Shown here: positions 2,269 to 57,143 of the stretch, in pieces
How the letters are laid out: each line of letters begins with the position of its first letter
Position numbering within the stretch: position 1 is the first letter of the stretch
IMG/VR virus record: IMGVR_UViG_3300018080_000111
DNA from: a virus
Taxonomy: Duplodnaviria; Heunggongvirae; Uroviricota; Caudoviricetes
DNA: 64,000 nt
Direction: 5' to 3' (one strand)
Position numbers and translations under genes: made by a program
Notes under the pieces: model-generated
Told to the model about the DNA's origin: nothing
The model's database searches: none
Seen by the model: the letters and a program-made list of their open reading frames with translations, nothing else

Positions 2269-3316
2269 TGATTGAATTCAAATCTTCGACATTCTCTTCG
2301 GTGTGATTAATCACCCAATATCTGTCCAACGCAAGAATGATGGCCTGATCCTTTGGAATGTTTAACCGGTCGGATAAAAGGTCAACGTATTGGACAAAGG
2401 CGTCCACGAACTCAGTTCTATTTACTATGGGGTCTTTTGAAAGACTTAAAACAATTCCTCTTAATTGAGAACAAAGTTCGCAAGGAAAAATTTCCGTGGG
2501 GGAAGCTAATCCACTTGTCATATAGATTTGAAGCTTTTTGGGATCTCCTCCTACTTCCCCAATCAACCATTTTACTAATGCGGGACACCCGGACTTATCT
2601 AAGTCAAAAATGGTGGGAATTCGAGATTCGGACTGAAGGCCCGGAATAAATATATGACCCGGAGGATTCGGTTTGGGTTCTGGTTCAGGCTCTGGTTCAG
2701 TGTCCGGTTGGGGCTCTGGACAACAAGGGGGCTTGGGTCTGGGGGCACAGGATGCCGCGATCGGCCTATCGATGGCCTGGGAAAAATTATCTCCTGCAGC
2801 AAGTACTAATCCTGATTGTACGGTTCCTAAAATCTGAACCTGTCCCGTTCCTTCGCCAAGATTTAAATGATCCAATCCCTTTTGGACAACCTGATTAAAA
2901 TTCTGGTCGGTAATCCCTTGGCCGGATACCATCAGTTGGGGGACATTAATTACAGAGCTTCCTGAAAAGATAATTCCCGCAGGATTAACAACAAAGACTC
3001 TTCCATTAGCAGTAAGGGCACCATTAAAAATGGTTGGAATACTCCCCGAGGTAATTCGGTTAAGGACGGCCGAGGAGCTGTTCTTCTTTCCATCCAAGTA
3101 TTGCTCAAAAGTTACGGACTGTTTTGAGCTTGTATTGAAATTACTCCAATTAATCACCGAACCATTTTGTGTCTCAATAATTGTATGGTCTCCCCATTGA
3201 GTTGGGGTAGCTCCCGAAGAGGAGATCATATCGCCCGGAGTAAGGGCGTATGTTTGGGTGGAGATCAAACTTACAATGAGTAATAGAATGATAGTTAGCA
3301 TGGTTTTTAATTTCAT
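2243..3316 (-). CDS. Secreted protein with filamentous haemagglutinin N-terminal (TPS) domain
   Basis: Signal peptide; INWSNFN...VLNRITSG...NGRVFVVNPAGIIF (Haemagg_act motifs); PE/PK-rich linker; Cys-containing C-terminal domain. Confidence 0.85.
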   Translation of the reverse strand: MKLKTMLTIILLLIVSLISTQTYALTPGDMISSSGATPTQWGDHTIIETQNGSVINWSNFNTSSKQSVTFEQYLDGKKNSSSAVLNRITSGSIPTIFNGALTANGRVFVVNPAGIIFSGSSVINVPQLMVSGQGITDQNFNQVVQKGLDHLNLGEGTGQVQILGTVQSGLVLAAGDNFSQAIDRPIAASCAPRPKPPCCPEPQPDTEPEPEPEPKPNPPGHIFIPGLQSESRIPTIFDLDKSGCPALVKWLIGEVGGDPKKLQIYMTSGLASPTEIFPCELCSQLRGIVLSLSKDPIVNRTEFVDAFVQYVDLLSDRLNIPKDQAIILALDRYWVINHTEENVEDLNSIIDEISSKL

Positions 3317-3361
3317 TTTGTTTTCCTTTCTAAAAATTACTATTTTCTGGTTATCAATAAA

Positions 3362-3829
3362 CTATCTTTTCTTTCTTTGTAATCTTCGAGCTGAGCCAAC
3401 TAAACATACTCCCATACTTCCAAGAAGAACGGCTCCCGGAGCAGGAATGGGTCGAACTGGTTCATTCTCGGGGTTCTGGAACATTTTTCCCAGATCCTCC
3501 CAGGTTCCCCAATCTTTTTCCTCGATAAAATTCTGGCAGATTGGAAAAGATGTCACCTTGGTACGAATCTTTTCAATACTCCCCTTCAGGCATGTGTCTT
3601 CGGTCCAGAGGAAATATTTCTTTGTTCCCCAATCAATACCGAAGACATGTTCACAGATCCAAAAATACCATTTGTTGATTAAGGAATCGTCATCTTTGTG
3701 CTTATTTTGAATGTGTAGTTTCCAGTATCCATCTGGATTTGGTTTTGGATAACATAGACCCGCCTTGGCGCTTACACAAACACCGAAAAGTAATACGAAT
3801 ACGACACAGTACAGCACAAACTTCTTCAT
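3362..3829 (-). CDS. PEP-CTERM-like sorting-signal protein (IPAPGA variant)
   Basis: N-terminal signal peptide; C-terminal IPAPGAVLLGSMGVCLVGSARRLQRKKR = motif + TM helix + basic tail. Confidence 0.8.
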   Translation of the reverse strand: MKKFVLYCVVFVLLFGVCVSAKAGLCYPKPNPDGYWKLHIQNKHKDDDSLINKWYFWICEHVFGIDWGTKKYFLWTEDTCLKGSIEKIRTKVTSFPICQNFIEEKDWGTWEDLGKMFQNPENEPVRPIPAPGAVLLGSMGVCLVGSARRLQRKKR

Positions 3830-3862
3830 CTCTCTTCTCCTAAAAAGGAATTAAAATGGATA

Positions 3863-4264
3863 TTAGGGTACATCGACCCAACGAACAAAAGTTACTTTGT
3901 AGATATCTTGACCCATCCGATTGTGATGGTTCTTTGCATCTTCATCCCTCCCTTTCCAACCATTTATCTCGAAGCACGAAATACAGTCTCGTATGTCCTT
4001 ATCGGTTTTGTTCGGGAGAAACATAATATTTTCTGTTTTCACCTCTCTCTTCTTTCCAGCGAGATCGAATCTTCCAAGAGTATATTCTATATCTTGTGAT
4101 GAAAGTCCAGTAACCGCATTGCCGAAGGCCTCATACGATATCTTGATTTCTAGAAGGTTGATACCGGATAATTCATCTTCAATTCGGATTCCGATATAGT
4201 TTTCCTCCACGTTTGATGTCACTCGACCGATCGATATATTACCTTTCAGGTATTCACGATTCAT
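3863..4264 (-). CDS. Hypothetical protein
   Basis: ORF in operon; start moved to MNREYLKG after GGAG. Confidence 0.6.
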   Translation of the reverse strand: MNREYLKGNISIGRVTSNVEENYIGIRIEDELSGINLLEIKISYEAFGNAVTGLSSQDIEYTLGRFDLAGKKREVKTENIMFLPNKTDKDIRDCISCFEINGWKGRDEDAKNHHNRMGQDIYKVTFVRWVDVP

Positions 4265-45074: not shown

Positions 45075-45794
45075 CTATTTTTCTTCAGTGGTCCCTGGCC
45101 ACATAATTTTATGATTTTGTAACGAGAAGGAATTGACATACCCATCTTGCATTGTCCGGTCCAATAACTTTCTGGGCCATTCCAAATCAACGGCTGGAAG
45201 AATACCAACATACTCTTCTTCGGATTCAACAGTTGGATGTATAATCTGTATAGCTGGGCTAACTGCTGTCTTTGCTTTCCATTGAGGATTAGATTGTACA
45301 AGTTCAACCATTTGATCATAGTCGTCCCAATCGGAAACCACAAATTTGATCACATCTTCTTCTCTCAAGGAATCAAAGGCAGCGGGATTCATCTTATCCG
45401 ACATACCGGACGAATGCAACTTGAAGTCCACTATATATCGTACTCTTGTCCAAAAAAGAGAAGGAACCATTGATCCATTCGTTTCGACAGAAATAGTATA
45501 TTCAATTCCTTTTGAAAATAGAAGTTGGATGATAAGTGCTTCCAGTCCTTTTTGTTGTTCTAAGGGTTCTCCCCCAGTAATTGTTATTTTAGGGAATCGA
45601 ACTTCATTAATTATTTCTTGGATTGTCATCCAATTATAGGGTTGGAATTCTTGGGAATATTCTGTGTCGCAATATGCACATTGCAAATTACATCCTTTCA
45701 GACGTATAAAAGTTGAGAATTGTCCCGCCCCAAGAAAACCATTAATCTCCCCGTCTATACTATGGAAGATAGATTGTACGTTTAGTTTAGTCAT
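45075..45794 (-). CDS. queE: 7-carboxy-7-deazaguanine synthase (radical SAM)
   Basis: IFHSIDGE, FIRLKGCNLQCAYCDT, TGGEPL, ETNGS, VDFKL, LQNHK. Confidence 0.9.
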   Translation of the reverse strand: MTKLNVQSIFHSIDGEINGFLGAGQFSTFIRLKGCNLQCAYCDTEYSQEFQPYNWMTIQEIINEVRFPKITITGGEPLEQQKGLEALIIQLLFSKGIEYTISVETNGSMVPSLFWTRVRYIVDFKLHSSGMSDKMNPAAFDSLREEDVIKFVVSDWDDYDQMVELVQSNPQWKAKTAVSPAIQIIHPTVESEEEYVGILPAVDLEWPRKLLDRTMQDGYVNSFSLQNHKIMWPGTTEEK

Positions 45795-49791: not shown

Positions 49792-50045
49792 TTTAAATAA
49801 AGTCCTACCTTTCCATCGAATTCTTTGATATAGATCTCAGAACAAGCCAAAGAGAACACATCTAAATTTCTGTCGTACGGAATTACAAATTGCTTAATTT
49901 GAACCATATCATTCGGAACTACTTCTTCACTAATTCTAATAGGAATAGCACAAGCATACTCTACTGTATACCCATGAACTAAATCATAGGAATTCACTTC
50001 CTTTTTCCGATAAAATTGTCCATTAATACGAATTTCTTTTTTCAT
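49788..50045 (-). CDS. Hypothetical protein
   Basis: Coupled ORF. Confidence 0.5.
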   Translation of the reverse strand: MKKEIRINGQFYRKKEVNSYDLVHGYTVEYACAIPIRISEEVVPNDMVQIKQFVIPYDRNLDVFSLACSEIYIKEFDGKVGLYLK

Positions 50046-50605
50046 TATAAGTCCATAAACTCCTGTCTCATCATTTTATCCGTTCTCATTTTACCCAGAA
50101 GGCAGCTAGTAACCATTTTACTTCCTACCTTTTTAACACCTCTATCGCACATGCAGGAATGGGAAGCTTCAAGAACAACTCCTACCCCCAAAGGATCTAA
50201 ATACTTCATAATAGTTTCTGCAACCTGATTTGTGAGTCTTTCTTGGACTTGAAGTCTGCAAGCAAAAACATCTAGAACTCGTCCAAGTTTTGAAAGTCCA
50301 ACAACCTTTTTATTCGGGACATATCCAATCTTGCCAATTCCAGAGAATTTTACTATATGATGCGAACAATGAGAAGTAAAAGGAATGTCTTTTACCACAA
50401 CCATCTCATCACAGTCTTCAGCAAAATCAACCGATAAAATATTTTGTATGTCCTCTTCAGTAAAAAAATAACCTTTACCAAATTCTTGGGTCCAAGCTTT
50501 GACAACTCTTTCTGGGGTTCGAAGGAGATGTTGATCATTTAAATCTAATCCCATTCCTTCTAGAAAAAGCTCAATTCCCTTTTTCATTTGATCTTTATTC
50601 ATCAT
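50045..50605 (-). CDS. folE: GTP cyclohydrolase I
   Basis: TPERVVK, SHCSHH, GLSKLGR, RLQVQERLT, HSCMCDRGV. Confidence 0.93.
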   Translation of the reverse strand: MMNKDQMKKGIELFLEGMGLDLNDQHLLRTPERVVKAWTQEFGKGYFFTEEDIQNILSVDFAEDCDEMVVVKDIPFTSHCSHHIVKFSGIGKIGYVPNKKVVGLSKLGRVLDVFACRLQVQERLTNQVAETIMKYLDPLGVGVVLEASHSCMCDRGVKKVGSKMVTSCLLGKMRTDKMMRQEFMDL

Positions 50606-51279: not shown

Positions 51280-52266
51280 TCACAGATCTATTCGATACAT
51301 CTTTTTCCAGGTTTCAAATTCCTCTCTTTCCTTATCATCTTTACAACCTAAATAGTAATGCTTGGTGAACTGACCACAAGAACTACCAATGTTTGAACCC
51401 GGAGGAGAATAGGCAGATACTTTGGCTTCATACTCCTTCTTTAGTTCTTTGATCCACAATTCCTCTTTAGGACTTCTTTTTAAATTACCGATTGGGTTAA
51501 ATTTTAAAAATTTTAATGGGATGTGGAACTTTTGCCCCAACTCTTTCAGTAGAAAATATTCATCTTCTGAATCATTTATCCCATCAATTAGAGTGTAGTG
51601 AATCTCTGAACAAAGTTCTCGAAAGCAATCCCCATCATGGAAAATTGAAAGATTCTTTTTAACCTCATTAGAGCACAAAGTTGCGTAATCATATAATCGT
51701 AGCAGTGCAGGATCTATTTTTATCCATGATTTTGGAAGAAGGTTTCTTCGGGAACTTAAATCAGGAGAATGCAAAGAAAAATGTATTTTAGTTGGAACTT
51801 TTTCTTGTAAAATTGTATGTATCGCCGCACCCAGGATTCTTTGTTCTGGTACTATAGTGGAGAGGGCAATGGAAAACATTTTCTTCTTTTCATCATCATT
51901 AAGCATTTTATAAATGCCTAAAATAAGATGTGGATTGAAAAGAGGTTCTCCAACTCCCATGAAGGAAAGGAGACATTTTTCGTTTGTAAGATATCGAGAA
52001 TTGATCCATTGAATTATGGGATATAGATCCAAGACACTTATCGATCCCATATTATTTATTCTATCGTTTGATTGGGTTAGATGACAAAATTTACATCCTA
52101 GTGTACAATAGTAGTGGGTGGGGAGACATAGAACGTCTATCCCAAGTTTATTTTTTATCCAGGCAACTTCAATAATCCCTTTGTCCTCTACTTCAAAAAC
52201 AAATTTTTCGGTTCCATCTTCATCTTGGAATCTTCCTAAACATGTAATGGGTTCATTGATTTTCAT
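51280..52266 (-). CDS. RlmN/Cfr-like radical SAM methyltransferase
   Basis: CLPTHYYCTLGCKFC, SFMGVGEP, FSLHS, YTLIDGINDS, IGSSCGQ. Confidence 0.78.
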   Translation of the reverse strand: MKINEPITCLGRFQDEDGTEKFVFEVEDKGIIEVAWIKNKLGIDVLCLPTHYYCTLGCKFCHLTQSNDRINNMGSISVLDLYPIIQWINSRYLTNEKCLLSFMGVGEPLFNPHLILGIYKMLNDDEKKKMFSIALSTIVPEQRILGAAIHTILQEKVPTKIHFSLHSPDLSSRRNLLPKSWIKIDPALLRLYDYATLCSNEVKKNLSIFHDGDCFRELCSEIHYTLIDGINDSEDEYFLLKELGQKFHIPLKFLKFNPIGNLKRSPKEELWIKELKKEYEAKVSAYSPPGSNIGSSCGQFTKHYYLGCKDDKEREEFETWKKMYRIDL

Positions 52267-53747
52267 TTTTCTACTCCCCCATACTCTTGAATATAGGCCA
52301 TAACTTCTGTCACGAAGTCAAACCTCTCAGATCGGTTCTTTAAAGTTCTAGGTTCCACCGAGCTCTTCATAATCAAATCCACAACCAGACAGGTATTTTT
52401 TTGTCCTTTTCGATGGATTCGTCCCGTAGTTTGCTTCCGGGACAATGGAGAAGGAGTCGGACTAAAATTAAGTATAGTGCTTGATGCGGTTCCATCCCAT
52501 CCTTCCGCCCCGGCCCCCCGTTGGACTAAGATACATTTTACTTTCTCTTCTTGAGTAAATCTTTTTACGCTTTCGGTTCGTTCCTTTAAATCTTGCCCTC
52601 CATAGATTCTTGAATACAAATATTTTTCTTTTTCCAAGGCCCTTTGGATCATATTAACTTCCTCCTTGAAGTAATAGAATATTATAACTTTCCCCGAAAT
52701 ATCCTCCAGGAAGTCTATTAAGGATTCTATCTTTGGGTTTTGTTTTAGGTAATATGTTTGAGTCGGTCCATCCTCTGTCTTGTAATATAGAAAGCCTAAA
52801 GGTAGTTGCCTAAGAAGTCGGGACTTAAGTTTTTTAAACTTATCTTCATCCTCATTCAATTCTGTAGGTTCCAATTTTACAATGGTTCCGTTTAGGGTAA
52901 TAGATGGTTGAGTTATTATCGCGTCTTGTAGTTTCAGATACCCTTTTGATGGATTTACCTCCCGGACTATTTCCTGAATCTCTGGAAGATCAAAGCATTC
53001 TTCTCTGTCGAAGCTGATGGATGTTTTTGAAATTTGTTCCAGGATTTTTTCTTTGGCTCCCTTTTTAAGTTTCCAGTCAAATACCACGGGGTAAAAATAC
53101 CTATTCCTATAAGCAAAGAAACTGGTCCCCAGGGTTCTTCCGAGATCAATCACTCTATAGATATTAAAGGCTTCGAGAAGAGAATTGTCAATTGGTGTTC
53201 CGGTAAGTCCTATTACATTCTTTGATAGCTTGGATAACTGATGACAGATAATACTTTGAAGGGATTTGTAACTTTTGCATTTATGAATCTCATCCAGTAT
53301 TATACAATCAAATTTGTGGATGAAGGAGGAGTAATTGATCTTCCAACCTTTTCCTTTCATCAATTTACAATATACTGTTTTTAATCCTTCATAATTGATT
53401 ATAAAAATATCCCTTTTCTTTTTTAATAGAGACCGACGATGTTTTCCTGATCCTAAAAGGAATTCATGAGAGTAGTCAGTATACTTGGAGATATCCCTTT
53501 CCCAGGCACTAAAAGCAGAGGAGGGACAAACTACCAGAATTTTCTTATTTTCCCACAGTTGAGTTGTCCAGAGAGCCGTGAGGGTTTTCCCTGTACCAAC
53601 ACCATGCAAAAATGCACAACGGGAGGAGGCCGCTGCGAAGGCCATGGAAATAAGTTGATGTCTCATCGGGGATAGTTTAAATGGGAAATCCCCAAAGATA
53701 TCATCTAACTCTTCCTTTATCAGTTTTTTATAGTCGAAGGTTCTCAT
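52263..53747 (-). CDS. SNF2-like superfamily 2 helicase
   Basis: HGVGTGKT, INYEGL, ILDEIH, LTGTP, QTTGRIHRKGQ. Confidence 0.88.
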   Translation of the reverse strand: MRTFDYKKLIKEELDDIFGDFPFKLSPMRHQLISMAFAAASSRCAFLHGVGTGKTLTALWTTQLWENKKILVVCPSSAFSAWERDISKYTDYSHEFLLGSGKHRRSLLKKKRDIFIINYEGLKTVYCKLMKGKGWKINYSSFIHKFDCIILDEIHKCKSYKSLQSIICHQLSKLSKNVIGLTGTPIDNSLLEAFNIYRVIDLGRTLGTSFFAYRNRYFYPVVFDWKLKKGAKEKILEQISKTSISFDREECFDLPEIQEIVREVNPSKGYLKLQDAIITQPSITLNGTIVKLEPTELNEDEDKFKKLKSRLLRQLPLGFLYYKTEDGPTQTYYLKQNPKIESLIDFLEDISGKVIIFYYFKEEVNMIQRALEKEKYLYSRIYGGQDLKERTESVKRFTQEEKVKCILVQRGAGAEGWDGTASSTILNFSPTPSPLSRKQTTGRIHRKGQKNTCLVVDLIMKSSVEPRTLKNRSERFDFVTEVMAYIQEYGGVEK

Positions 53748-53766
53748 TATCTTTTACTACAAATAG

Positions 53767-53829
53767 AATTTGTGGACGAAGGAGGAGAATTTGGTCTTCC
53801 AACCTTTTCCTTTCATCAATTTACAATAT
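53767..53829 (-). repeat. 63-bp near-copy (59/63) of helicase segment 53311-53373 at the TnpB guide position
   Basis: The 35 TnpB-proximal bp (53795-53829) are identical to 53339-53373; 4 mismatches lie distal. Confidence 0.9.
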
Positions 53830-53861
53830 TCGGATCTTTTCTTTTCAACAGGCTCCGAATG

Positions 53862-54920
53862 TTATTCTATTCCTGTAAGGAACCGATTCAAGATATTCAA
53901 AGACGCGTTGTAATCTGCATCCGATGTGTATCCACACTCCATACACTTAAATACCTCACCTTTACGATTCTCTTTATGGATACTTCCGCAACGATTACAT
54001 TTCTGACTCGTATAGGCTGGATTTACTTTATGACATTGGACGCCAACTACCTCACAAGCTTGTTCCAGTCTTCTTAGGAAGTACGGGTAAGTCCATCTCT
54101 GTAATTTGTTCATCACCTTCCTGGCCACTTTTTCTTTAGTCCTTTTCTTTATGCCCTTCAGATTTTCAACCACTATCCCCTTTAGATCTGAAAGCTTAAT
54201 CTTTTTAACTTCCCTATTGATATATTCATCTCGCTCTTTTAGAGCACGATAGAAAGCCTTACTTCCTTGCTTCTTCCTTGATATCTTTTCAATCTTTTGT
54301 ACAAGTTCCTCCCCAACCATCTGTCCTGTGGACAATACGGCCAACTTCTTGTATCCACAATCTAGGCCGATCATCTCTCCTTCCTCTTTTGGTTCCGGAG
54401 CAGCCTTCTCAAAGAAGAGGTCTCCAAATAGGTCAGACCCCTTTCTCCTAATTCTAATGGACTTCTTTAATTTCCAATCTTCTTGAATAAACTTATTGAA
54501 ATGCTTGTGCTTTTTGGTTGGAATTTTTACAAAACACTGCTTCCCAGATCTCCTACCCATTCCTTTAATAGTAATCCATAGATCAAAAGAGTTCTTTCCT
54601 TCTTGAATCACAACGAATCGTTGATCAAGTTCAAAACTTTTTCCACTAAAAGTGGGTTTCGTTTTCTTCTTTCTCTGCCTTTGAGATTTTACTATATGGA
54701 GAGCAGAGCATGCTGCTCCCTGTCTTGCGGTAAATGATAGGGGCGAATCCACCTGATCCAGGACCTCTCGTTCCACGAACGAACCGGTAAATCTTTTTAT
54801 TTCCCATAGAGTATCTATATATTGATTAACTGCTTCAGTGTATCTATCTAGGAAATCAAGAACCTTGTTCTTCTTTCCTATATTACAATAATTTAGATTT
54901 ATTGTAGATTTTCTGATCAT
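53862..54920 (-). CDS. tnpB: TnpB/Cas12f-like RNA-guided nuclease with no tnpA
   Basis: RuvC-I IGLDCG, RuvC-II VVENL, Zn finger CNRC..CMEC, RuvC-III DADYNAS; all three acidic catalytic residues present. Confidence 0.9.
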   Translation of the reverse strand: MIRKSTINLNYCNIGKKNKVLDFLDRYTEAVNQYIDTLWEIKRFTGSFVEREVLDQVDSPLSFTARQGAACSALHIVKSQRQRKKKTKPTFSGKSFELDQRFVVIQEGKNSFDLWITIKGMGRRSGKQCFVKIPTKKHKHFNKFIQEDWKLKKSIRIRRKGSDLFGDLFFEKAAPEPKEEGEMIGLDCGYKKLAVLSTGQMVGEELVQKIEKISRKKQGSKAFYRALKERDEYINREVKKIKLSDLKGIVVENLKGIKKRTKEKVARKVMNKLQRWTYPYFLRRLEQACEVVGVQCHKVNPAYTSQKCNRCGSIHKENRKGEVFKCMECGYTSDADYNASLNILNRFLTGIE

Positions 54921-54928
54921 TCTTCTTC

Positions 54929-55450
54929 CTATAATTTTTTAAAGCGCAGTAAGTGCTCATTATCCTTTTCTAAGAATCGAATCTCATTAAATCCTTCTTT
55001 AATGGTAGGAGTATCATATTGTTCGTTAAATTTATCCCAGACTCTCTCCCAAATCTTTCTGTCTCGGATATCATGTGGAATTTTCATTCTCCTATCCACA
55101 GAGGTCTTTTTTAAGAGACGTGGCATAATCAAAGCAATATTATAATACTGATACTTCTTTCCTAAATCAATAAAATCCTTTCTAAGATCAACGGATATAT
55201 TTGTTTCATCCAGAACAATATCAATACCAGTTCTCATAAAACCATTTAGTAAGTCCAAAGTACCTTGAATGACAAGTGGCTCCAACTCTGGATCAAAATT
55301 ATACTTACCTGCTCCAAACATATATCGGAGGGAGTCTCTACTGACATAAATGATTTTCTTCCCCTTCTTTCTTTTTTCTTCAATGAAATTTTGAGCAAAG
55401 GTGGATTTACCAGACCCAATATTCCCAACTAAAATATACAGTTTATTCAT
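54929..55450 (-). CDS. AAA_33 / polynucleotide kinase-like P-loop protein
   Basis: ILVGNIGSGKST, VSRDSLR, VLDETN. Confidence 0.82.
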   Translation of the reverse strand: MNKLYILVGNIGSGKSTFAQNFIEEKRKKGKKIIYVSRDSLRYMFGAGKYNFDPELEPLVIQGTLDLLNGFMRTGIDIVLDETNISVDLRKDFIDLGKKYQYYNIALIMPRLLKKTSVDRRMKIPHDIRDRKIWERVWDKFNEQYDTPTIKEGFNEIRFLEKDNEHLLRFKKL

Positions 55451-55461
55451 TTTATCTTCCT

Positions 55462-56283
55462 TTAAACACACCAAGTATTGGATATTTTCCCATTGGGAAA
55501 TAAGGTCAGTTTTTCTCCTAACTTATATCTAAGTTTAGAATCTTCTAAAAGTATTCTTATCCTCTTTCCTTGTTTGTTTTGTTCATTTGAATAATCCACC
55601 ATTTTATTCAATTCATTATGATCAGGAATCAGAGATGTATCAACCACATCTGAATGGTGGTCCCGGATAGGCCATGCTGAAATATTAGATACTCCCAGCT
55701 GGAAAAGAAATTCTACAACTTCTTTGAATCTACTAAATGTTGAAATATTCAATCGACCCAAAATTAAATTGGCCCGAGAATTCAATTCCGTCTGGTGTAT
55801 TCTACTGAAAACCTCTTTAAGTGGTGGGTAAGAAGGCACATTAAAAATTTTAGCGTTTTCCTTTTCATTAGTGTGATGAACAGTAACATATACGGTGGAC
55901 AGACCTCGGGATTTCCAAAGAGTCAAGTACTTCTCACAAAAGGGAAGATCTTGCCCTATCCTAATACCATTAGAATAAAGATTAATCGATTGAAATTTAT
56001 AACCGATTTCAGATAAATAAAATAGTAGATTCATAAGTTTGGTTAAGGAAACCGGAGATAGGGTGGGTTCCCCACTACCACTAATTGTCAAATTTCTTGC
56101 TCCTTTATTATGGCAAGAAATTACCAACTTCTTAATTAAATCAAGATCAATTTCTCCATCTTTTATTGGAGAATATTTTCTCAAGGGCATTCCCGCACAA
56201 TGGGAACAAGTAGCATTGCAGATTCCCATACCCACAAAGATGGAAAGACTCTTTACCCGATCGGATATTTTTACTTCATACAT
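55462..56283 (-). CDS. Radical SAM protein
   Basis: CNATCSHC, SGSGEP, LYSNG. Confidence 0.85.
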   Translation of the reverse strand: MYEVKISDRVKSLSIFVGMGICNATCSHCAGMPLRKYSPIKDGEIDLDLIKKLVISCHNKGARNLTISGSGEPTLSPVSLTKLMNLLFYLSEIGYKFQSINLYSNGIRIGQDLPFCEKYLTLWKSRGLSTVYVTVHHTNEKENAKIFNVPSYPPLKEVFSRIHQTELNSRANLILGRLNISTFSRFKEVVEFLFQLGVSNISAWPIRDHHSDVVDTSLIPDHNELNKMVDYSNEQNKQGKRIRILLEDSKLRYKLGEKLTLFPNGKISNTWCV

Positions 56284-57143
56284 AGGGCCCCCTCCCTTAT
56301 CCAGGAGTAGGCTACCGTCCCATCCTGAAATACCACTAATTGTCTAACAAAATCCTTTCTCCTATTATGTTTTGTTACGTAGTCTGTGTATCTTAAGATC
56401 GCCCCATTGTAGTCAAATACACCACCTCCCCAAGCGTGACCATGACACATTTTTGCATTTTTTCTCAACCACCTTCGTATGGAAAATAGTCCCCATCGAG
56501 AAGGAGTAAATTCATTTCTTGAGTTATCCGGATTCCCCACAGGCCAGGAGGTTATATTGTTAAATCCCTTTTCAAGTAATCTACTTACAGCTACTGCATA
56601 GGTATATGAAGAATCTACTATTCCTTTATGAAGAAGTAGAGTAAGTCGGACACCAACTCCATGTTTTTCAATATTGCGTTTTATATCCACAAGATTAGGA
56701 TAAGAGTCTATATTGTATGCTTCTGCTTGTCCAGTTTCCTCTACATCATGAATTGATATAGCGACATTAGTTAAACCAAGTTTTCTCCATAAAGGAAGAT
56801 ACGTATTACAGTATTCCCCATCACCAAACAATATTCCATTGGTAAATAGGTTTACATTTGGAAAATAGGCTCCTTGCTTAGCACAAGCAGAATAATGCTC
56901 CAATGCTTCAGTTACACACTCCGGTTCAACCGATGGTTCTCCACTTCCTGTCAAAGATAATGACCATCCCCCATATCTTGCTGACAATCTTAACGCAGTA
57001 TCAAAATTTCTAAAATATAAATCCTTGGATACTACACCAACCTCTTTGCGTAGATCAGTTGCTGCACAAAATTTGCATTTTCCATTACATTTTCCAGTTC
57101 CTATAAGTGCGGAAACACTATAAATCTTTTCGATACATCCCAT
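56271..57143 (-). CDS. Radical SAM protein (paralog of neighbour)
   Basis: CNGKCKFC, TGSGEP, LFTNG. Confidence 0.85.
   Translation of the reverse strand: MGCIEKIYSVSALIGTGKCNGKCKFCAATDLRKEVGVVSKDLYFRNFDTALRLSARYGGWSLSLTGSGEPSVEPECVTEALEHYSACAKQGAYFPNVNLFTNGILFGDGEYCNTYLPLWRKLGLTNVAISIHDVEETGQAEAYNIDSYPNLVDIKRNIEKHGVGVRLTLLLHKGIVDSSYTYAVAVSRLLEKGFNNITSWPVGNPDNSRNEFTPSRWGLFSIRRWLRKNAKMCHGHAWGGGVFDYNGAILRYTDYVTKHNRRKDFVRQLVVFQDGTVAYSWIREGALCMK

Follow-up and report, generated by a model that had tools for sequence, protein, structure and literature searches.

TnpB, a small RuvC nuclease with a zinc ribbon, is encoded by IS607 and IS200/IS605 transposons (ISDra2 TnpB, PMC8612924). The scaffold of its omega-RNA overlaps the 3′ end of the gene and closes with a terminal pseudoknot; the guide is templated by the DNA directly 3′ of the element, and a short motif lies 5′ of the target. 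TnpB is known for restoring its own transposon after excision, and a homing role has been described (bioRxiv 10.1101/2023.03.14.532601). Homing by TnpB between phages is treated as theoretical only in a 2026 review (PMC13565253), and a full-text literature search returned no paper showing a TnpB/OMEGA homing case between phages. T-even phages carry free-standing homing endonucleases, SegF, SegG, and MobE, which are associated with intronless homing (Belle et al. 2002, as cited in PMC13565253). Here we describe a tnpB cassette in a 64,000-nucleotide stretch of DNA (the window) from an uncultured, T4-like phage (IMG/VR record IMGVR_UViG_3300018080_000111). Judged from its sequence, the element is a transposase-less, left-end-less TnpB/omega-RNA cassette, related to IS607 elements, that sits at the junction of an AAA-kinase gene and an SNF2-helicase gene. 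A copy of an internal segment of that same helicase gene occupies the guide position.

The cassette resembles IS607 and IS200/IS605 TnpB systems in its nuclease, in the pseudoknot-terminated scaffold overlapping the gene at its 3′ end, and in a guide position directly 3′ of the element with a short motif beside the target. Unlike those systems, it has neither TnpA nor a left end, and its guide finds a match beyond the immediate flank, at a distance of 456 bp, inside an intact essential gene of the same genome. As with SegF, SegG, and MobE, the nuclease gene is wedged between conserved replication genes and the target lies in a conserved stretch of a neighboring gene; a small sequence difference would separate self from nonself, and co-conversion and marker exclusion would be expected at coinfection. 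Recognition would depend on an RNA guide and a short motif rather than, as in the Seg/Mob systems, on a protein, and would need a copy of the target DNA beside the scaffold. By analogy, the element would appear to behave more like a T4 Seg/Mob free-standing homing gene than like a transposon. We propose, with a confidence that approaches but does not reach an even chance, that it is a selfish RNA-guided cassette for intronless homing or exclusion, with a one-base change in the motif conferring self-immunity.

The tnpB gene and its omega-RNA

The tnpB gene (positions 53862 to 54920, minus strand) encodes a full-length protein of 352 amino acids that matches Pfam family Cas12f1-like_TNB (PF07282; E value, 8.6e-20) and PHROG transposase families; its PDB matches over the RuvC/TNB region are Cas12f and ISDra2 TnpB. 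In an alignment of 24 close homologues, the intact D-E-D triad of RuvC (D187 in GLDCG, E252 in VVENL, and D336 in DADYNAS) and the zinc-ribbon cysteines (CxxC...CxxC) all fall in invariant columns. A preliminary description of this DNA had called tnpB intact, and these motifs bear it out; on this evidence, TnpB looks active. As a side observation, the tnpB frame read past its TAA (53862 to 53766) remains in frame into the peptide of the helicase copy (YCKLMKGKGWK...), which is probably a coincidence (1 in 3).

The absence of tnpA and of a left end had also been noted, and both points stand. The ATG of tnpB lies 8 nt past the stop codon of the AAA gene, leaving no room for a left end, and no tnpA or resolvase gene is present among the genes flanking tnpB in the window. 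Among related loci (designated by L numbers), TnpA is likewise missing from L001, L002, L005, L006, L102, L103, L105, and L107. Thus, the locus lacks both TnpA and the left end that would mark it as an IS200/IS605 or IS607 transposon. Since it has neither, no excision is possible, and restorative homing would have nothing to restore. What is seen instead is tnpB present or absent between conserved syntenic genes, the pattern by which free-standing homing genes are recognized. A TnpB relative in L009, 51% identical, adjoins a serine-recombinase TnpA, which indicates an IS607-type ancestry. Near relatives of the cassette (63 to 88% identical) are found at varied sites in related phages, without tnpA in every case. 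Because these close relatives occupy different sites, we conclude that the cassette moves. The earlier characterization of tnpB as domesticated does not fit this scatter over many sites, which is the behavior of a selfish mobile cassette.

The ~245 nt that precede the presumed guide were aligned for eight loci (the window, L005, L033, L102, L006, L103, L001, and L002). The omega-RNA scaffold, which we take to span 53830 to 54075 (minus strand) in the window and which overlaps the 3′ end of tnpB, has a consensus structure of 67 pairs, including a pseudoknot added by eye, with 95.7% of cells paired. Sixteen pairs have changed on both sides, and none of 500 shuffles reached the observed values; when pairing partners were slid by 1 to 3 columns, pairing fell to 27 to 44%. 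In the pseudoknot at the 3′ end of the scaffold (53830), five loop bases of an invariant ACAGG/CCTGT hairpin pair with the last five scaffold bases (in the window, 53854 to 53858 with 53830 to 53834). Covariation is seen in four of these five pairs (variants TCGGA/TCCGA, CACAA/TTGTG, and TCGAA/TTCGA), and L105 adds a further variant, TCAGA/TCTGA. The CGGA...TCCG stem reported earlier is real, but it is this terminal pseudoknot helix, covarying across relatives, and not a plain stem. Compensatory change of this kind indicates that the omega-RNA is under structural selection. Rfam has no family for the scaffold, no second omega-RNA was found within the 64-kb window, and no terminator is predicted between the guide and the helicase gene. 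We conclude that the protein and the RNA are ordinary members of the TnpB family.

The end of the scaffold coincides with the end of the cassette. In L103, it is with the first base past the scaffold that similarity to the uninterrupted L006 gene sets in. In L001, the match to three tnpB-free alleles (L098, L099, and L101) begins at the scaffold end, give or take one ambiguous base. Homology to the helicase gene in the window likewise begins at the first base past the scaffold (53829). For L001, L102, and L103, the right junction is at the scaffold boundary, and the left junction is variable.

The helicase copy, its target, and the adjacent motif

The helicase copy (53767 to 53829, minus strand) consists of 63 nt corresponding to codons 126 to 146, and the guide proper would be its first 20 nt (53829 down to 53810). 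The placement of this copy at the guide position, proposed in the preliminary description, is confirmed by its start at the exact scaffold boundary. The matching self site (53311 to 53373, minus strand) is in the SNF2-family helicase gene (52263 to 53747, minus strand), which is whole and encodes 494 amino acids (Pfam SNF2-rel_dom, Helicase_C, and ResIII; PHROG DNA helicase; 155 homologues). The self site falls in a conserved stretch of this replication gene, past the N-terminal helicase motifs and just ahead of the DExH box, a type of location typical of homing endonuclease targets. A repeat finder reported 53306 to 53382 and 53762 to 53838 as a 77-nt repeat with 87% identity; the core (53311 to 53373 and 53767 to 53829) is identical at 59 of 63 positions, with no indels. 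The mismatches are at positions 36, 40, 42, and 53 counted from the scaffold end, and the first 35 nt are identical, in agreement with what had been described.

The copy differs from the gene by four nonsynonymous changes (I to T, N to K, Y to F, and I to V) and by no synonymous ones. At each of them, the state of the working gene is shared with at least some relatives. Two of the states in the copy have no counterpart among the relatives; each of the remaining two recurs in a single relative (Thr in L007 and Phe in L091). The earlier suggestion that the copy came from a different allele is not supported, because the changes are nonsynonymous and derived in the copy, with the working gene keeping the states of its relatives. 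We conclude that the copy is undergoing decay rather than representing a functional allele brought in from elsewhere.

The five bases 5′ of the self target (53374 to 53378, minus strand) are ACAGT, with the G (53375) at position −2. Three sister cassettes provide a motif for comparison: AAAAT for L103, read in the empty allele; AAAAA for L001, read in three empty alleles; and ACAAT for L102, which lies beside an 8/9 left remnant of the guide (p ~0.014). No empty allele of L102 was found on search. The left flanks of L005, L002, L105, and L107 had only 3- to 6-nt matches and were not counted, and the copies in Candidatus Magnetobacterium (L108, L110, and L112) gave no motif because their 3′ scaffold is different. 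From the three sister cassettes we infer a consensus of roughly A-N-A-A-W. The helix that we presume to read the motif, going by the ISDra2 structures, is nearly invariant in the alignment of the clade.

At the helicase site, the corresponding bases are ACAAT in L092, ACTAT in L007 and L003, and ACCAT in L091. A single A-to-G transition, changing Ile to Val, therefore separates the self site of the window (ACAGT) from the full motif (ACAAT). Of 40 helicase homologues, 4 have Val at this motif-adjacent residue and almost all of the rest have Ile. It had been suggested that a nonpermissive motif protects the self site and that the bases beside the site in tnpB-less relatives would bear on this. 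The bases in L092 (ACAAT), set against ACAGT in the window and A-N-A-A-W in the sister cassettes, lend the suggestion comparative support.

A second duplication, unnoticed earlier, surrounds the cassette. Local alignment of 54924 to 54972 with 53710 to 53759 gave 40 identities in 46 positions and 4 gaps, with a score of 36, compared with 15.6 ± 2.6 in shuffled sequences; none of 2,000 shuffles scored as high. The duplicated sequence is the last ~25 nt of the AAA gene (54929 to 55474, minus strand; Pfam AAA_33; PHROG polynucleotide kinase) plus the first ~14 codons of the helicase gene. The left junction copy (54924 to 54972, minus strand) spans the end of the AAA gene and a degenerate version of helicase codons 1 to 14. 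The right junction copy (53710 to 53766, minus strand) begins with a noncoding remnant of the AAA 3′ end (53748 to 53766) and continues into the working helicase start. On the minus strand, the order is thus the AAA gene, dead helicase codons 1 to 14, tnpB, the scaffold, the copy of codons 126 to 146, the dead AAA tail, and the whole helicase gene. The join between the helicase copy and the dead AAA tail falls in an ATT-Y-GATT microhomology.

In L091 and L092, the AAA gene directly abuts the helicase gene, without tnpB, and these loci represent the empty junction; in L092, the two genes overlap, the AAA stop codon sharing bases with the helicase ATG. Homologues of the AAA protein have ~159 amino acids and cover only 86 to 88% of the protein in the window, and we conclude from this that its tail reads into the dead helicase start. 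The C-terminal extension of ~20 residues (54929 to 54990) follows from a one-base length difference that leaves the ancestral TAA, still in use at the helicase ATG in L092, out of frame. Sister cassettes are also flanked by duplicated junctions (11 nt in L001 and about 9 to 13 nt in L102); the left side of L103 has a ~125-nt deletion instead. Cassettes of this clade usually have a guide identical to the start of the gene next to them. The junction-duplicating design is retained in the window, with an internal helicase segment placed ahead of it. Independent low-depth contigs from two other sequencing runs cover 53718 to 53880 without differences, indicating that the arrangement is not an assembly artifact. 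Logan unitigs break at the repeat.

Genomic setting and related loci

The phage has a genome of ~145 kb, the proteins of the window being recorded on a 144,859-nt contig. It comes from a sediment metagenome and is also present at low depth in two other runs; the public runs that hold it are three DNA runs, with no RNA run listed. No GenBank phage has a nucleotide match to the window. Every gene between 48 and 64 kb is on the minus strand, in a module for replication and nucleotide metabolism that contains an RNA ligase gene, a DAHP-synthase-like gene, radical-SAM genes, the AAA_33/polynucleotide-kinase-like gene, tnpB, the SNF2 helicase gene, further radical-SAM genes, and genes for GTP cyclohydrolase I and primase. 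Around the locus (45075 to 45794, 50045 to 50605, 51280 to 52266, and 55462 to 57143) are genes for GTP cyclohydrolase I, a QueE-like radical-SAM protein with an Fer4_12 domain, and three more radical-SAM proteins. Relatives have a Q_salvage gene and a QueC-like gene. Taken together, these genes suggest a 7-deazaguanine DNA-modification pathway.

Several related loci carry partial or tandem forms of the cassette. In L011 (1847 to 3220), a solo tnpB 3′ fragment (residues 274 to 348) that has a scaffold end of its own comes immediately after a tnpB copy. The two scaffolds share the terminal CCGTAACCTAA, past which their sequences diverge, and they look like two tandem omega-RNA units; a 27-nt stretch (the CEVVGVQYH segment) is missing from the full tnpB copy there. 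Solo or degenerate tnpB 3′ pieces are also present in L006 (3310 to 3360), L040 (1453 to 1743), and L073 (1593 to 1808), and L115 has a solo tnpB 3′ fragment. The pieces in L006, L073, and L011 start near the same residue (about 270 to 278, at the NKLQRW motif); that in L040 starts earlier (~239). These starts could mark the 5′ end of stand-alone guide-RNA genes or a hot spot where one cassette lands in another.

Two cassettes at unrelated sites, in L001 (5700 to 5815) and L105 (480 to 578), have in common a 45- to 50-nt leader before the tnpB ATG (ATCGA ... TCGAAAG ... CTAA ... GAAAAAAGAT), which may be a remnant of a left end. The window does not have this leader. In a Candidatus Magnetobacterium genome, L108 and L110 (each 3001 to 4059) encode TnpB relatives that are 56 to 58% identical to that of the window. 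These two loci are 89% identical to each other in nucleotide sequence from the exact ATG to ~36 nt after the matched region. Because the identity starts exactly at the ATG, we conclude that left-end-less cassettes are also found in a bacterial chromosome. L103 (300 to 1700) and L006 (1850 to 2215) are from syntenic phages and have related tnpB cassettes one gene apart. The cassette of L103 is inside a 108-amino-acid gene, ~125 nt of which is deleted; that of L006 follows the intact gene. Each of the two loci provides the empty allele for the neighborhood of the other.

Proposed origin, function, and alternatives

The simplest history of the locus that we can derive from its layout would have three steps. 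A microhomology-mediated partial tandem duplication of 456 nt, from the end of the AAA gene through helicase codon 146, would have come first; the cassette would then have inserted at codon 125/126 of the upstream, redundant copy; and codons 15 to 125 would have been lost later, together with the left end. A similar outcome is seen in fungal mitochondria, where the mobile-ORF "gene hybrid" elements of Allomyces atp6 combine insertion with a partial duplication of the host gene, the gene remaining whole and the displaced piece decaying. The window locus resembles them in having both an insertion with a partial host-gene duplication and a decaying displaced piece. It differs in what is duplicated, namely, the 5′ junction and an internal segment, and in that the internal piece would double as the template of an RNA guide.

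In the homing or exclusion mechanism that we propose, the bases past the pseudoknot, i.e., the copy of helicase codons 126 to 132 onward, would template the guide. The TnpB-RNA complex would cut helicase genes that bear the 16- to 20-nt target behind A-N-A-A-W, and the victims would be coinfecting sibling phages in which the ancestral ACA-ATA (Thr-Ile) codons persist. The break would be repaired from the cassette-bearing genome, with conversion of the 5′ part of the helicase gene, and a repair tract of about 0.5 to 1.5 kb would carry the cassette across, amounting to intronless homing with marker exclusion. The carrier would be spared, since its own site, ACAGT (Thr-Val), is one transition off the motif. 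Counting in favor of this mechanism are the intact nuclease, the covarying RNA, the onset of helicase homology exactly at the scaffold end, the motif comparison, the conserved location of the target, the confinement of all four changes in the copy to the part past position 35, and the scatter of close relatives over different sites. A broader proposal is that the locus is a case of natural TnpB retargeting. A duplicated internal fragment of an essential neighbor would serve as the guide, the helicase gene of siblings would be struck 0.45 kb from the insertion point, and self would be spared by the single transition, which would make the cassette an RNA-guided equivalent of the intronless homing and marker exclusion of T4 Seg/Mob. 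We put this forward as a tentative claim that we regard as rather less than evenly poised.

A number of observations weigh against homing or exclusion. No sibling genome with a cleavable target was found, and the nearest helicase gene, that of L007 (77% amino acid identity), has mismatches to the guide at positions 11 and 16 and the bases ACTAT. Contigs from the three runs with this phage show neither a tnpB-less allele nor joints, and the target is not polymorphic in them. In the available DNA of 24 related loci, many of them short, no guide region matches a second site in another gene; the only matches of guide regions were to multicopy tnpB sequence (L011) and to a degenerate tnpB fragment (L006). 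The layout in the window is thus not the usual design of the clade. The C terminus of TnpB is 8 to 12 residues shorter than those of its relatives, in a tail region that is variable. The motif itself is inferred from cassettes whose TnpB is only 65 to 72% identical to that of the window, and Val at the motif-adjacent codon, present in ~10% of homologues, could be ordinary polymorphism. The confinement of all four changes to the region past position 35 has a p value of 0.034, but this is a post hoc figure. The absence of changes in the first 20 nt is not significant alone (p ~0.22), so selection on the guide is not demonstrated. Two further searches also yielded nothing: a degenerate pattern of the target peptide had no match in IMG/VR, and a sliding nucleotide comparison of the helicase gene with L007, L092, L091, and L003 revealed no recent conversion tract by the target. 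Helicase residues 61 to 125 are 95% identical to P0122 in amino acid sequence, yet only 78 to 89% identical in nucleotide sequence (45-nt windows).

According to the main rival of the homing or exclusion mechanism, the locus is an idle scar. The helicase 5′ region would have been partly duplicated in tandem, and a TnpB element would have inserted into the redundant duplicate and lost its left end; the 63 nt would be mere flank, the cassette would now have neither target nor role, and Val would have arisen by chance or as an old escape mutation. A tandem duplication with a period of 456 nt and a novel junction at the ATT-Y-GATT microhomology would account for the layout, and the left end is indeed gone. 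The distal part of the copy is decaying (four of four changes nonsynonymous), the intact first 20 nt are compatible with neutrality, and both the lack of a second-site match to another gene in any other related locus and the lack of a target-bearing sibling are as a scar would have it. However, a useless gene in a compact phage operon would not be expected to keep its open reading frame, catalytic motifs, and RNA structure intact, as this one has, and the self site is off the inferred motif at exactly one base. Moreover, the copy has 4 changes in 63 nt (~6%) and no indels, compared with 10 events in 53 columns (~19%), including 4 indels, for the junction duplicate, a comparison that is weak because age and constraint may differ between the two. 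We regard an idle scar as a serious possibility, if a somewhat doubtful one.

Protection of the carrier might also have a different basis. The preliminary description had allowed for DNA modification as the protection of the self site. The site would then be cleavable in principle but shielded by a phage modification such as 7-deazaguanine, with TnpB striking only unmodified target DNA. The module contains the gene for GTP cyclohydrolase I and several radical-SAM genes, one of them QueE-like with Fer4_12, and relatives have Q_salvage (L006) and GTP cyclohydrolase I (L092). No DpdA/TGT-type transglycosylase was identified among the scanned open reading frames, however, and siblings with the same modification genes would be protected too. 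The motif difference is the simpler explanation, and we consider a modification shield improbable. Even less probable, to the point of being hardly credible, is the reading of TnpB as a tamed, TldR-like protein that binds DNA under RNA guidance and controls transcription through the helicase gene. Phage TnpB relatives have been tamed as repressors (bioRxiv 10.1101/2023.11.30.569447), and the cassette resembles TldR in being phage encoded and transposase-less and in having a guide aimed at a specific gene, here one of the same operon. TldR proteins have lost the RuvC D-E-D residues, whereas these are intact here; the self site appears to lack the motif required for binding, and the target is deep in a coding region, not in a promoter. 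We reject a TldR-like role because all three catalytic residues are present.

If the homing or exclusion mechanism is correct, RNA-guided nucleases would serve as free-standing homing or exclusion genes in the competition between phages. It would mean that a guide can be directed at a site other than the insertion point and that one base in the adjacent motif suffices for self-immunity. It would also help to explain why transposase-less tnpB genes are common in large phages.

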